This document shows positions 8,265 to 12,504 of a stretch of DNA of 64,000 nucleotides, in pieces; within the stretch, counting starts at the first letter, position 1; every line of letters starts with the position of its first letter. The notes below the pieces were generated by a model, which had not been told where the DNA came from, searched no databases, and was given only the letters and a program-made list of their open reading frames with translations. The stretch lies in the NCBI RefSeq assembly GCF_011050675.1, contig NZ_DRFI01000023.1, one strand, 5' to 3'. The translations under genes were made by a program, and so were the position numbers. The stretch is from Maribacter sp. (GTDB lineage: Bacteria > Bacteroidota > Bacteroidia > Flavobacteriales > Flavobacteriaceae).

Positions 8265-8753
8265 ATGCAGAAAGAAGCAGTCTTTACTGATTTGGTAAGA
8301 GAACATCAAGCACTTTTATATAAAGTGACTTCAATCTACATTGATAATAAAGAAGATCAAGAAGATTTATTTCAAGAAGTAGTATATCAACTTTGGAAGT
8401 ATTTCGACTCGTTCCGGAACGATTCAAAAATAACAACTTGGATGTATCGGGTGGCCATGAATACTGCTATCACTTATATAAAAAGAAAAAAGAGAAGACC
8501 AGACTCGGTTCCTATTGCTGATGTTTTTATAAAACAGTCAGAAATTAAAGATGAAGTTTTTGAAGAAAGACTACGGCTACTTTATCGGCACCTACAACAT
8601 TTAAACACCTTGGAAAAAGGACTTATTTTTCTATTACTTGAAGGTAAAAGCTATAAGGAAATAGCGCAGATTACTGGATTGAGTGCCAGTAATGTTGGCA
8701 CAAAGATATCTCGTGTAAAGAAAAAATTAAAAACTAACATGACAAATCATTAA
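8265..8753 (+). CDS. RNA polymerase ECF-type sigma-70 factor
   Basis: Region 2 (LFQEVVYQLWKYFDSF) and region 4 HTH (SYKEIAQITGLSASNVGTKISRVKKKL). Confidence 0.8.
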   Translation: MQKEAVFTDLVREHQALLYKVTSIYIDNKEDQEDLFQEVVYQLWKYFDSFRNDSKITTWMYRVAMNTAITYIKRKKRRPDSVPIADVFIKQSEIKDEVFEERLRLLYRHLQHLNTLEKGLIFLLLEGKSYKEIAQITGLSASNVGTKISRVKKKLKTNMTNH

Positions 8754-8756
8754 ATC

Positions 8757-9356
8757 ATGGAAATAGAAGAGCTACAATCTGCCTGGATACAAATGAGCCA
8801 AGAATTAAGTCAACAGAAAAAATTAACGAATGAAATTATTTTGGATATGACAAAACAGAAATATCAAAACAAATTCACCATGCTAACTAAGTACGAGACT
8901 ATAGGCGCATTTATATGTTTCGTTATTGCTTTCTTTGTATTATTAAATTTTGGTAAGCTAGACACTTGGTATTTAAAAGTTTGTGGCGTATTAACGCTTT
9001 CATTTCTTTTAATTTTACCTGTAATGGTGCTAAGCACGCTTAAAAAAATTAAGAATATTGATATTACCAACGGCTCGTACAAAGAGAATTTAAAAGTCTA
9101 TTTAAAAACAAAGAACAGACTTCTAAAATTGCAACAGGTTGGTATGGCAATAGGTTTTATAGGGCTACTATTCATTGTTCCTGTTACATCAAAAATCATT
9201 TCGGATAAAAATGTTTTCTTAACCAATCTTAAAGTAGAGCAATACATCATATTTGCTATAACTTTAGTGGTATTAGCATTTTTTTGCAAATGGGCTTATA
9301 AAGGCTATCAGAAGATTACCCAATCTGCTCAGGATTTAATTAAGGATTTAGAATAA
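8757..9356 (+). CDS. Membrane protein co-transcribed with the ECF sigma factor (possible anti-sigma factor)
   Basis: Starts 4 nt after the sigma gene. Three to four predicted TM helices. No zinc-finger anti-sigma motif. Confidence 0.5.
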   Translation: MEIEELQSAWIQMSQELSQQKKLTNEIILDMTKQKYQNKFTMLTKYETIGAFICFVIAFFVLLNFGKLDTWYLKVCGVLTLSFLLILPVMVLSTLKKIKNIDITNGSYKENLKVYLKTKNRLLKLQQVGMAIGFIGLLFIVPVTSKIISDKNVFLTNLKVEQYIIFAITLVVLAFFCKWAYKGYQKITQSAQDLIKDLE

Positions 9357-9361
9357 GGTTA

Positions 9362-9991
9362 TTATTCGGTAAGTTTCTTCTGAATGTAATTTAATATTAG
9401 CATCCAATTCATTTTTAATAGGAGTGAAGCTGTTGGTACATTATCATCTGCAATTGCAGCTATGATGGACTCATGCTGATTGTCTGACTTATTATAGAAT
9501 GAATCATCGTTTGTAAAAGCACGTTCATAAAAAAATATGCGTGTTTTTAAATCGTTTAGAATTTTTAAGGCCAAATTATTTTTATACCCTTTTGCCAATA
9601 GTCTATGAAATTCTAAATCTGCTTGAATTCTTGAAATAGCATCAGTTGCATTTTCAAATACATCTTGTTGATTTTTTAGTTTGATAATATCCTCTTCATT
9701 AAACTCAGAATTTTCAATAGCCATTACTTCTAAATTAGCCACTAATTCATAAAGATCTTCGGCTTCCTCTACATCCAATTCCGCAATTATAAACCCCCTA
9801 TTGGGTACGGCTTTGATTATGTGCGCCTGTTGAAGTTGAGTTAATGCCTCCCTAATTGGCGTAACGCTGACTTTTAGATGCCTAGCAAGTGCGGCTAAAT
9901 TAATAGTTTTACCAATTTTAAGATTACCAGTAATCATTTCTGACAGTAAGTAATCCCGCACCTGATCCCTTAAATTTATTTTCACTAACAT
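9362..9991 (-). CDS. GntR-family transcriptional regulator (FadR-like, FCD effector domain)
   Basis: N-terminal wHTH (LAALARHLKVSVTPIREAL) and a C-terminal all-helical FCD-like domain. Confidence 0.75.
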   Translation of the reverse strand: MLVKINLRDQVRDYLLSEMITGNLKIGKTINLAALARHLKVSVTPIREALTQLQQAHIIKAVPNRGFIIAELDVEEAEDLYELVANLEVMAIENSEFNEEDIIKLKNQQDVFENATDAISRIQADLEFHRLLAKGYKNNLALKILNDLKTRIFFYERAFTNDDSFYNKSDNQHESIIAAIADDNVPTASLLLKMNWMLILNYIQKKLTE

Positions 9992-10103
9992 GTATCAAAT
10001 ATAATATATCGTATACGATATAACAGAAAATAAACTGGTTTAGTGCTTTTCAGATTACTAATAGCAAAATGATATGAGTGATGAGTTCATATCATTGAAA
10101 TTA

Positions 10104-10217
10104 TTAGAATCCAAACTGCAATTCTGGTCGACATACCTTTTTTTGTTTGTCTTTTATGGCTGTCCATAAATTAAATTTCGCAGATGTAATAGGTAATGAA
10201 GTTTTAAATTTTCTCAT
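10104..10217 (-). CDS. Small basic ORF, 37 aa (divergent paralogue, copy 0): MRKFKTSLPITSAKFNLWTAIKDKQKKVCRPELQFGF
   Basis: ATG (rc at 10215-10217) to TAA. Exactly the same length as copies 1 and 2, with MR.F start and net charge about +7. The ORF track merged it into a 68-aa read-through ORF. Confidence 0.3.
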   Translation of the reverse strand: MRKFKTSLPITSAKFNLWTAIKDKQKKVCRPELQFGF

Positions 10218-10279
10218 GATATTCGTTTTAAATCGGTGATTAGCCTTATGATTAATTATCGATGTAGATTGATGAATGC

Positions 10280-10393
10280 TTAATGGGTGTGTTGTCTTGA
10301 TGATGCCCATTGTACTCTTTTACTGTTCTTAAAACTTGAAAAGAATGTGTTTCTTCTTGATTCTGTCGGAGTGTTTCTGATAAAAGTTCTCAT
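10280..10393 (-). CDS. Small basic ORF, 37 aa (copy 1): MRTFIRNTPTESRRNTFFSSFKNSKRVQWASSRQHTH
   Basis: ATG (rc at 10391-10393) to TAA (rc 10280-10282). Differs from copy 2 only at G10289 and T10316, both synonymous. Confidence 0.35.
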   Translation of the reverse strand: MRTFIRNTPTESRRNTFFSSFKNSKRVQWASSRQHTH

Positions 10394-10456
10394 GCTGTTC
10401 TTTATTAAATAGGTGATTAGCCGATTGATTAATGATTGATTTCTAATGATGAATGT

Positions 10457-10570
10457 TTAATGGGTATGTTGTCTTGATGATGCCCATTGTACCCTTTTAC
10501 TGTTCTTAAAACTTGAAAAGAATGTGTTTCTTCTTGATTCTGTCGGAGTGTTTCTGATAAAAGTTCTCAT
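10457..10570 (-). CDS. Small basic ORF, 37 aa (copy 2), peptide identical to copy 1
   Basis: ATG (rc at 10568-10570) to TAA (rc 10457-10459). Has its own upstream spacer similar to the other units (attattcgtttttaaat...tgatgatta). Confidence 0.35.
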   Translation of the reverse strand: MRTFIRNTPTESRRNTFFSSFKNSKRVQWASSRQHTH

Positions 10571-11076
10571 ATTATTCGTTTTTAAATTGATGATTAATAA
10601 ATTTGTTATACTAAGTAGACGACGTTAAACAAACTTTGTTACAGTACTATGCATAAAAAGGTACTATTTTTAACAATAACACAATAAGAAATATCATTAA
10701 ACACCTTATTTTAAGATGTTTATGATTTTATATTTTTTTTATGTTTTAACAAAATTTCTTGTTTTTTAAAAAATCTAAAAGATTAAAGAGAAGGGGAGTT
10801 GAAGAATTAATTCCAAAAAGTATACTATATTAGGTATTGATTTATAAATTAATATTAGGTCTTTTAAAAGTTTGTTAGTTTGAGTACGACTAATGCTAAA
10901 TAATTGAAATACAAATCATATCTTTGCAGAACTTTAGAGGGATGCAGATGATTCTTGCAATGACCTTACAACAAGTGGAAATATAGTTTACTCAAAAAAC
11001 TTACCATTTGTTATACACGTCACCACGTATTTCAATTCCTTTACAGTAAAATCTATTATTATCATTAAAATTACGA

Positions 11077-11535
11077 ATGGCAAAATCGCAACAAACATTT
11101 AATAAAACTGAAAAAGAAAAAAAGCGCTTAAAAAAGCGTGAAGAAAAGAAGAAAAAAATGCTTGCTCGTAAAGCAGCTGCAAAAGAAAGTGGTACATCTG
11201 GTATTCCACTTGCTTATGTAGATTTCAATGGAAACTTAGTGGACACTCCGCCAGATCCGGCAATGAAAGTGGAAATTGAGGCAGAAGATATCGTTTTAGG
11301 TATTCCAAAGAAAGAAGAAGGAGATGTTGAAGAATTCGATCCGGTTAGAAACGGAAAGGTTTCTTTCTTCGACACTACTAAAGGTTTCGGTTTCATTATT
11401 GACACTGAAAACAACGAGAAATATTTTGTTCACGTAAGTGGTCTTATTGATGAGATCATGGAGAACGATAAAGTTTCTTACGAGCTAGAAAAAGGCATGA
11501 AGGGCATGAACGCCGTTCGTGTTAAGAAGATTTAG
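11077..11535 (+). CDS. Cold-shock-domain protein with a ~90-aa K/E-rich N-terminal extension
   Basis: C-terminal CSD with RNP1 KGFGFI and RNP2 FVHVSG (GKVSFFDTTKGFGFI...YFVHVSGL...MNAVRVKKI). N-terminal KEKKRLKKREEKKKKM low-complexity segment. Confidence 0.75.
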   Translation: MAKSQQTFNKTEKEKKRLKKREEKKKKMLARKAAAKESGTSGIPLAYVDFNGNLVDTPPDPAMKVEIEAEDIVLGIPKKEEGDVEEFDPVRNGKVSFFDTTKGFGFIIDTENNEKYFVHVSGLIDEIMENDKVSYELEKGMKGMNAVRVKKI

Positions 11536-11550
11536 TTTTAAAATTTTTTA

Positions 11551-12504
11551 ATGGTGAAAATGCAACGTAACACCGTTCTGGTAGTATTGTCATTTTTCGC
11601 CATTTATTTCATTTGGGGATCAACCTATTTATGGAATAAAATTGCAGTAACCGAATTACCTGCCTTTATGTTGGCAGGTATTCGTTTTGTAACTGCGGGG
11701 TGCCTAATTTTTATTATTTCTAAGGTATTAGGCTTTTCCCTAAAAATCACCAAACAACAATTTAAGAATACTATAATTGCTGGCTTTCTATTTCTAACTT
11801 TTGGAAATGGGGTAGTAGTTTGGGCTTTAAAATATGTTGATAGTAGCTTTGCTGCTCTAGAAGTTTCTGCACAACCATTAGTAGTTCTATTAATGATGCG
11901 CGTACTACAAGGCAAAAAAATTCAGCCTATGTCCATTATAGGTGTAATTCTTGGAATAACCGGAATATTTCTACTCGTTGGTCAAAAAGAAATCATTGCG
12001 CAAGATGGTGCCATATTAGGAATGGTACTAATTTTCGTTTGCATGTTAAGCTGGTCTTATGGTAGTTTATATGTCGGTAAGGCAGATTTACCTAAGAACT
12101 TCTTTGTAAATACAGGTTACCAAATGCTTACCAGCGGATTATCATTGCTAACAATTAGCACCATATTCGGAGAACAATGGACATCACCTACCACTTGGAG
12201 CACCCCTGTAGTTTGGTCTATGTTATTATTAATCGTATTTGGTAGTATTGTAACCTTTACAGCATTTAATTATTTATTACGAATTGTATCGCCAGAAAAA
12301 GTGGCTACTTCAACTTATGTAAATCCCATTATTGCAATGATTCTAGGTTGGTATTTTTTGAATGAAGATATTAGTATGCAATCAGCACTGGCATCTATTG
12401 TGCTTTTAACAGGTGTGTTTTTTATAAACACTAAAAAAAGTCTCACTATTTTCTCTAGATTCTCAGGAAAACGTATTCCTAAGAAAATGGCAGATCAATC
12501 TTAA
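11551..12504 (+). CDS. EamA/DMT-superfamily transporter
   Basis: Ten predicted TM helices in two EamA-like halves. 317 aa. Confidence 0.7.
   Translation: MVKMQRNTVLVVLSFFAIYFIWGSTYLWNKIAVTELPAFMLAGIRFVTAGCLIFIISKVLGFSLKITKQQFKNTIIAGFLFLTFGNGVVVWALKYVDSSFAALEVSAQPLVVLLMMRVLQGKKIQPMSIIGVILGITGIFLLVGQKEIIAQDGAILGMVLIFVCMLSWSYGSLYVGKADLPKNFFVNTGYQMLTSGLSLLTISTIFGEQWTSPTTWSTPVVWSMLLLIVFGSIVTFTAFNYLLRIVSPEKVATSTYVNPIIAMILGWYFLNEDISMQSALASIVLLTGVFFINTKKSLTIFSRFSGKRIPKKMADQS

Follow-up and report, generated by a model that had tools for sequence, protein, structure and literature searches.

A tandem array of 37-codon genes for small basic proteins behind an ECF-type promoter motif in Maribacter

Short bacterial genes arranged head to tail have been described in several systems. 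The staphylococcal psm-alpha operon carries four tandem genes for peptides of ~21 aa on one transcript, and the enterobacterial type I toxin loci (ldr, ibs/sib, zor/orz) are built of direct repeats of a few hundred base pairs with a short open reading frame (ORF) of fixed length. Very small and extremely basic proteins are found among the ribosomal and ribosome-associated proteins (bL34, bL36, bS22 and SRA, 33-46 aa), and promoters of the form TGAAAC or TGTAAC-N16-17-CGTA or CGTC are those of the Bacillus subtilis sigma factors W, X, M and V. The locus presented here can be compared with each of these. It lies in a stretch of 64,000 nucleotides (the window) of the Maribacter sp. contig NZ_DRFI01000023.1 (assembly GCF_011050675.1) and consists of a 177-bp direct repeat in which three ORFs of 37 codons are read on the minus strand. 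Comparison with related loci indicates that the repeat is a series of tandem small protein-coding genes under protein-level purifying selection. We consider it probable that they form a three-cistron minus-strand operon for 37-residue basic proteins, which would be induced by stress and whose product may bind polyanions or a protein partner.

Organization and conservation of the repeat

The preliminary description of this DNA, made from its letters alone, had reported a tandem repeat inside the intergenic gap between a GntR regulator gene and a cold-shock-domain gene, and the repeat was recovered together with both genes at the gap edges. Tandem Repeats Finder placed it at positions 10211-10596, with a period of 177, 2.2 copies and 88% matches. 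The best pair of units, 10228-10404 and 10405-10581, showed 90% identity. The three minus-strand ORFs were present as described, each running from ATG to TAA over 37 codons. In the direction of reading, cistron 1 (10457-10570, minus strand, previously copy 2) and cistron 2 (10280-10393, minus strand, previously copy 1) encode the same basic protein of 37 aa, MRTFIRNTPTESRRNTFFSSFKNSKRVQWASSRQHTH, and cistron 3 (10104-10217, minus strand, previously the third unit) encodes MRKFKTSLPITSAKFNLWTAIKDKQKKVCRPELQFGF, also of 37 aa, a divergent putative paralog hereafter called the terminal type. Cistrons 1 and 2 differed at 2 of 114 nucleotides, AGA/AGG and CAC/CAT, both synonymous, so that the identical peptide and the purely silent change reported for the two close copies were found again. 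The ~16 other mismatches of the 177-nt unit were all located in the 63-nt spacer, a divergence of ~25% which corresponds to the quarter of positions given earlier.

Homologous loci were gathered in three ways: through the GntR neighbour, through an alignment led by a 41-aa member of the family, and with a degenerate codon pattern. For the first, 80 orthologous GntR loci were taken, with one genome per species. Approximately 40 Maribacter species carried one to five tandem family ORFs between the cold-shock gene and the GntR gene, nearly all of exactly 37 codons, and the first of them was found ~506 nt from the cold-shock start codon. Where the GntR protein was less than ~72% identical the family ORF was absent from the gap, which measured 160-340 nt there. 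The codon pattern, PTExRRxxxF...KR[VI]xW, was applied to metagenome contigs and yielded 106 loci, 101 of which carried a total of 215 family ORFs of far more diverse sequence, including 178 of exactly 37 aa. The family was present in Maribacter, Ulvibacterium and Pseudozobellia (WP_256439303.1) as well as in marine metagenomes, and the most divergent group was assigned to Lutibacter from an adjoining gene 96% identical to its Lutibacter flavus counterpart. The GntR protein of the window was itself found unchanged on marine-sediment metagenome contigs and was 97% identical to the GntR protein of Maribacter stanieri. Overall the 37-codon frame was retained in ~140 related independent loci, which argues that the ORFs of the repeat are more than a product of chance.

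The substitution pattern points to selection on the peptide. Among 83 unique 114-nt ORFs, the mean entropy per column was 0.42 at the first codon position, 0.37 at the second and 0.93 at the third. Pooled non-synonymous (pN) and synonymous (pS) values were 0.14 and 0.55, with a corresponding dN/dS ratio of ~0.16. The five alternative frames were interrupted by stops in 64-100% of these sequences and only the 37-codon frame was open. A frame-blind test was made by running an nhmmer DNA profile of the unit against all genome loci, with 121 hits. Ninety-eight of them were intact at 37 codons and 7 more were intact at 36-42 codons, 10 were cut by contig ends and 3 by runs of N, and 3 were decayed, all at single-copy loci (L039, L044 and L047). 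When 49 diverse units were aligned, between 2 and 6 synonymous codons were seen for each of the invariant residues T10, K25, R26, W29 and R33; all six arginine codons occurred at R26 and at R33, and S24 switched between AGY and TCN. Selection on the RNA or DNA sequence cannot produce such a pattern. The conserved frame and length, the dN/dS ratio with its codon-wise substitution, and the variable copy number thus support the view argued at first, that the repeat is not inert but a tandem family of genes for small proteins.

A structured RNA read from the plus strand had been put forward as the alternative. In its general form, with non-coding RNAs on either strand and an incidental ORF, this explanation can call on the existence of tandem small RNA genes in other bacteria and on a hairpin of 6-7 bp (AATGGG...CCCATT) which is possible at the 3' end of each ORF in Maribacter. 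RNAalifold, however, returned 0 pairs on either strand for the 49 diverse units, hence no covariation-supported consensus structure, and Rfam, searched at permissive thresholds over positions 9000-12000, gave chance-level matches only, none of them near the gathering score. The arginine and serine codon-family switches alter up to three bases and yet keep the amino acid, and a dN/dS of 0.16 is that of a coding sequence under constraint. The structured-RNA alternative was rejected on these grounds, and we attach a negligible probability to it.

The number of copies varied from one to five between loci. When only arrays wholly within contigs were retained and main-type units were counted, 25 arrays had one unit, 33 had two, 37 had three, 6 had four and 5 had five. 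The median nucleotide identity of the ORFs was 0.86 within an array as compared to 0.64 between loci, and this higher identity within arrays suggests recent duplication or gene conversion. In a contig of the same species (L001) the array was shorter by one unit than in the window. In many public assemblies the sequence stops or is N-filled exactly within the array (L002-L006, L011, L016, L017, L019, L020, L021, L027, L036 and L072), so copy numbers in draft genomes are probably under-counted. In two loci some spacers after the first units were expanded, with a period of ~215-240 nt, by ATCAATCAATTATTC repeats in L032 and by (TAGTAGT)n in L033.

The third unit is a special case. It matched the main copies at 7 of 37 aa and 48 of 114 nt, and a tblastn search in the window gave no link between them. 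Within the window, its links to the repeat were limited to where it lies, its equal length, the MR.F start and the leader upstream of it. Its membership of the family, as first proposed, therefore stood with regard to the equal length and the MR.F start, whereas homology of the coding part was not detectable from the window alone. Orthologues of the third ORF sit last in the arrays of other Maribacter, for example MKNFQKVLPITSAKYNLLNAIKDKQRKLLSIERHLAY, and forms such as MKHNRRLSPTTSRKFAFFT..KVRWVAAKE, which the family profile retrieves, bridge the terminal type to the main family. It is these bridging intermediates in other genomes that argue for kinship. For the terminal type (10 unique sequences), the entropy was 0.34/0.47/0.72 at the three codon positions and dN/dS was 0.29. 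Judging by these comparisons, the third unit is a diverged paralog still under selection.

Transcription and translation signals

A conserved promoter element was found upstream of the first unit only, with the consensus ..aGTACctTTTtat.CATAGTACTGTAACAAA-N13-TCGTCTa... In the window it is composed of a putative -35 element, TGTAAC, at 10638-10643 on the minus strand and a putative -10 element, CGTC, at 10618-10621 on the same strand, 16 nt after GTAAC. Of the 119 unique loci with enough sequence in front of the first unit, 96 had GTACTGTAAC there with at most one mismatch, including very divergent loci. The spacer between GTAAC and CGTC was fixed at 16 nt in the motif-bearing loci, once 18 cases first scored with a 13-nt spacer had been re-read as CGTCGTC, as in the window. 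In 1.17 Mb of loci, 94 of the 105 TGTAAC-N15-17-CGTC sites corresponded to array promoters. The window element (10643-10618) was the sole GTAAC-N14-19-CGTC in 64 kb, where the chance expectation is ~1, and so the evidence for the promoter is its conservation and not its count. Promoters of extracytoplasmic function (ECF) sigma factors have AAC in the -35 element, CGTC or CGTA in the -10 element and spacers of 14-17 nt (PMC5758882). With its AAC -35, CGTC -10, 16-nt spacer and conserved position, the putative array promoter matches that description.

Two further conserved boxes, AGTAC, were located upstream of and abutting the -35 element (10644-10665, minus strand; boxes at 10665-10661 and 10648-10644). 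Their consensus in 95 unique loci was ..aAtaGTACctTTTtat.CATAGTACTGTAAC.., and in some lineages the box arms formed a 9-nt inverted repeat, CAGTACTAT-N7-ATAGTACTG. An operator and an extended -35 or UP-like element are both possibilities.

In three cases, TGTAACC-N16-CGTCA was located ~65-70 nt upstream of an ECF sigma gene (L160 at ~2685, L166 at ~5803 and L176, oriented, at ~7553), and because of these three sites it appears that ECF sigma factors use the TGTAAC/CGTC motif in these bacteria. The three sigma factors are only ~25% identical to the sigma factor encoded in the window, are often encoded in divergent pairs and look autoregulatory. Their loci are those of the lineage with a single copy, in which the small ORF has a promoter of the housekeeping type instead, and the three are at most candidates for the cognate factor.

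In 19 loci a second family of conserved small ORFs, 36-41 aa long, lay after the ECF-type promoter and ahead of the first 37-aa cistron (L065, L075, L081, L086, L090, L097, L109, L135, L137, L145, L150, L158, L161, L168, L177, L181, L182, L185 and L189). These ORFs, for example METLHQHQLRPRIYYQIGSGWITDRLYNQKIENKTTKNI, share the motif RP[RK]IY..G.GW.TDRL and are located 2-21 nt upstream of the first unit. No member of this second family was found in the window.

Beyond cistron 3, a terminator-like hairpin followed by UUUUGCUAUU occupies positions 10061-10096 on the minus strand. Its 10-bp AT-rich stem pairs 10096-10087 with 10077-10068, with a predicted energy of -9.1 kcal/mol and z = -2.9 as compared to shuffles. 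Across loci, 46 of 126 arrays had a strict terminator behind their last unit, as compared to 5 such terminators behind 165 internal units. The Bacteroidetes -7 box and the ECF motif were both absent from the internal spacers (0 of 158). With a promoter motif upstream of the first unit only and a terminator after the last, the array looks like one operon, and on the evidence of these motifs it is most likely transcribed as a single transcript. The earlier statement that each copy has its own upstream region thus holds for the translation signals; the promoter motif belongs to the first unit and the terminator to the end of the array. A scan for sigma-70-type promoters and terminators gave counts equal to those of shuffled sequences, and such a scan is uninformative for a Bacteroidetes genome.

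The region preceding each cistron has the character of a translation start. The 5' leader of cistron 1 (10571-10617, minus strand) is short, A-rich and predicted to be unstructured (0 kcal/mol), the spacer before cistron 2 (10394-10456, minus strand) is G-poor and also predicted to be unstructured (0 kcal/mol), and the same absence of structure is predicted for the spacer before cistron 3 (10218-10279, minus strand). In 256 unique units the frequency of A, 31% in the background, was 82% at position -3, 75% at -6 and 87-97% at -10 to -13, and G was nearly absent from the leaders. In Flavobacterium johnsoniae, which is without Shine-Dalgarno sites, ribosome profiling and reporters show matching positions that promote initiation (PMC6847099). 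That each cistron has its own translation start region of the Bacteroidetes type is well supported by motifs but not proven. A small spacer hairpin, CGGCTAATCACCG, showed apparent covariation in a few species; it was unstable in the window's own spacers and is not claimed.

The peptide and the surrounding genes

The main peptide has a mass of 4.5 kDa, a pI of 12.0, a grand average of hydropathy (GRAVY) of -1.34 and a helical hydrophobic moment of 0.21. Its net charge was computed as +6.7 and that of the terminal type as +6.5, in agreement with the value near +7 announced for both. Neither a signal peptide nor a membrane segment was predicted for the main peptide. The family consensus is M[RK]x5-6-PTE[SA]R[RK]xx[FY]FS[NS]F[KR][ND]SKR[VI][RQ]W[AST]ExR[NH][YH].., and an AlphaFold2 model from 19 sequences showed helices at residues 11-19 and 25-35 joined by a turn, with a predicted local distance difference test (pLDDT) score of 73.5. 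A helical hairpin is accordingly the predicted fold, with moderate confidence. Pfam and NCBIfam gave no match to the two window peptides or to any of the 53 aligned members, a profile search of all PDB chains returned nothing even at E <= 10, and Foldseek found no fold match. Kinship with bL34 was considered for the MRTF start and an RRN..F motif. The bL34 N-terminus, which we take to be MKRTFQPS, has a superficial resemblance to MRTFIRNT in the family and is a lead only; the kinship was rejected, as there was no Pfam, PDB-profile or fold match.

These peptides are almost invisible in protein collections. A hidden Markov model search of 1.84 billion representative proteins gave 27 hits, all of them short ORFs or N-terminally over-extended calls, so that no larger protein appears to carry the module. 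A collection of 5.8 billion proteins contained 11 clusters, mostly of the terminal type, and the few clusters with a name were called "hypothetical protein". Most of the entries found are mis-extended calls. By exact look-up in the public collection, the 37-aa product of the window had never been called as a gene. Gene callers usually pick over-extended ORFs of 51-172 aa, which read through the spacer or the upstream unit into the 37-aa cistron (window 10104-10310 on the minus strand, L001 5682-5888, P0009, P0010, P0013-P0015, P0018 and P0024). The 68-aa ORF of the window, already suspected to be a read-through artefact, is the over-extended ORF 10310-10104, and gene callers made the identical call on sister contigs. 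No description of the family or of its promoter was met in the literature searched, which does not prove that they are undescribed.

Tandem short peptide genes in many copies are typical of loci for secreted or modified peptides, and the array might accordingly encode precursors of a bacteriocin or of ribosomally synthesised and post-translationally modified peptides. One of the 53 members did match a Chryseobacterium bacteriocin-like leader model marginally (E = 0.049), a noise-level score of a single member. The peptide is strongly hydrophilic and not amphipathic, its conservation extends over the full length including the C-terminus with no split into leader and variable core and no Gly-Gly motif, and no modification enzyme, protease or exporter recurs beside the arrays. 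All this makes precursor peptides a very improbable explanation. Type I toxin-antitoxin-like modules, each with a toxic peptide and an antisense RNA, in tandem like ldr, ibs and zor, would also account for tandemly duplicated short ORFs, and in the window hydrophobic ORFs of 34-41 aa are open on the antisense strand. Such antisense frames are, however, interrupted by stops in 64-100% of the homologues, antisense -7 boxes are not enriched (19 observed vs 24 expected), a single promoter motif is common to the units, and a peptide with this GRAVY and without a membrane segment does not resemble a type I toxin. We find this explanation scarcely credible.

Downstream of the array, on the same strand, is the gene of the GntR/FCD regulator (9991-9362, minus strand), and divergent from it is the gene of a 152-aa cold-shock-domain protein (11077-11535, plus strand). 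The array ends 112 nt from the GntR gene, and the two are co-directional in the window, an arrangement in which the ORFs could be leader peptides controlling the regulator in cis. The terminator-like hairpin stands between them, and the GntR gene has its own -7 box, TATATTTG (10003-9996, minus strand), of the canonical Bacteroidetes type and 4 nt before the ATG. It is preceded by a perfect 16-nt palindrome, ATATCGTATACGATAT (10021-10006, minus strand), of the T.GT..AC.A type typical of GntR operators. These elements suggest an autoregulated gene with a nearly leaderless mRNA, which would be expressed separately from the array because it has its own -7 box and palindromic operator. In most other species the next downstream gene is on the opposite strand (lipoprotein or PCMT) or unrelated: opposite-strand genes separate the array from the GntR gene, or the neighbours differ. 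By this comparison the array has no fixed association with the GntR gene, and leader peptides have next to no likelihood.

The neighbours that recur change with the lineage: the cold-shock gene in Maribacter, an EF-G paralog at 25 loci, a PCMT methyltransferase at 23 loci, and a lipoprotein. No EF-G paralog was found in the 64-kb window. Guilt by association with the cold-shock protein, the EF-G paralog, the PCMT methyltransferase and a DEAD-box helicase was dropped, as this content varies by lineage; the neighbours are parts of one loosely syntenic chromosomal region, and no functional inference was therefore drawn from them. Adjoining the GntR gene, positions 8265-9356 on the plus strand hold an ECF sigma gene (162 aa) and the gene of a 199-aa membrane protein without a family match, possibly an anti-sigma factor. 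Even divergent lineages (L115, L127, L144 and L165) have orthologues of this pair no more than ~10 kb from the array. Upstream of the cold-shock-domain gene, a 22-nt inverted repeat (10891-10912 and 11027-11048), 77% complementary with arms 114 nt apart, may belong to a structured leader at the 5' end of its transcript.

Proposed role and comparison with described systems

We propose that a stress-activated sigma factor of the ECF type would recognise TGTAAC-N16-CGTC (10643-10618) and transcribe the whole array to the hairpin and U-tract (10096-10061). The cistrons would be translated independently from their own unstructured, G-poor and A-rich leaders, which would serve as the Bacteroidetes substitute for a Shine-Dalgarno sequence. 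Tandem duplication by unequal recombination, with one to five copies between species and partial homogenisation within arrays, would raise the amount of peptide per transcript. We infer from this that the peptide is made in bulk under stress, the tandem copies serving dosage. Since the product is hydrophilic and without signal peptide or membrane segment, it would stay in the cytoplasm, probably as a small helical hairpin. Its charge and the apparent need for a high dose suggest that under stress it would most likely bind stoichiometrically either an abundant polyanion (RNA or the ribosome, less likely DNA) or a protein partner. Our confidence is low for this last part, in which a cytoplasmic peptide, induced by stress and amplified in dosage, would bind RNA, the ribosome or a protein partner.

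Several observations weigh against the model. The ECF element is lacking in 23 of the 119 loci, and in its place one single-copy lineage has TAAGTTTG, a -7 box of the canonical Bacteroidetes type, ~35 nt ahead of the ATG. The adjacent ECF sigma gene (8265-8753) was considered as a possible cognate factor; its upstream region has TGTGACAAA (TGTGAC) but no CGTC. The stem of the window terminator is AT-rich with a 9-nt loop, strict terminators follow only 37% of the arrays, and both ECF dependence and the single transcript are deduced from motifs. On the side of the product, the structure model reaches only moderate confidence (pLDDT 73.5), a run with 11 sequences produced a single helix with a pLDDT of 59.5, and no similarity to ribosomal or other solved proteins was found by PDB profile or fold search. 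The recurrence of the cold-shock protein and of the EF-G paralog appears to be explained by shared synteny and not by functional linkage. RNA or the ribosome as the binding partner is argued from physico-chemistry, namely charge and dosage, and is a doubtful though not far-fetched proposal.

The operon could also be as described with a peptide of another kind, a specific protein-binding regulator comparable to the small helical-hairpin inhibitors whose targets are kinases, anti-sigma factors, translation GTPases or cell-division proteins. The predicted helical hairpin would suit such a regulator, the strictly invariant non-basic residues T10, F18 and W29 suggest a specific interface, and in many lineages the genes within a few kilobases include an ECF sigma/anti-sigma pair and an EF-G paralog. 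The multi-copy arrays and the optimised start region, however, point to a high abundance that would be unusual for a regulator acting at catalytic scale, the whole family keeps a net charge of +6 to +7, and the neighbours change between lineages. We judge a specific regulator to be unlikely. The abundant basic binder remains preferred, and its most pointed version is more speculative still: the peptide as a stress-inducible stoichiometric component or modifier of the translation or RNA machinery of Flavobacteriaceae, such as a conditional ribosome-associated protein, would be quite a long shot. If it were true, tandem amplification would be a route to ribosome-scale amounts quickly, and a peptide that binds ribosomes or RNA would be a new stress-response component in the translation biology of Bacteroidota.

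The family also has a more immediate interest. It is almost absent from the annotations of marine Flavobacteriaceae, bacteria that rank among the major degraders of algal polysaccharides, and methods for finding small proteins could be tested on it cleanly in a phylum without Shine-Dalgarno sites. The putative array promoter could be a ready-made reporter for an ECF stress pathway yet to be characterised. In practice, it should be borne in mind that the arrays break short-read assemblies, with copy number under-counted as a result.

The array resembles the psm-alpha operon in its near-identical short head-to-tail cistrons with their own starts; both were historically missed by annotation, and gene multiplication appears dosage-related in both. 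The psm-alpha products differ in being amphipathic, membrane-active, exported and controlled by AgrA, whereas the array peptide is hydrophilic, strongly basic and not amphipathic, has no exporter nearby, is preceded by an ECF-type promoter motif and has no sequence relationship with them. The direct repeats with a fixed-length short ORF are those of the enterobacterial type I loci, but these have hydrophobic toxins and a promoter and antisense RNA per repeat, none of which was found in the array. In size and basicity the peptide is close to bL34, bL36, bS22 and SRA, although ribosomal protein genes are single-copy and are not located behind ECF promoters. The promoter architecture matches that of the B. 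subtilis sigma-W, X, M and V promoters and is close to their consensus, while paired AGTAC boxes abutting the -35 element are not a described ECF feature. Altogether this is a new family of a known kind, that of small unannotated bacterial proteins, and it is unusual in its strict length of 37 residues, its multi-cistron arrays and its ECF-type promoter.

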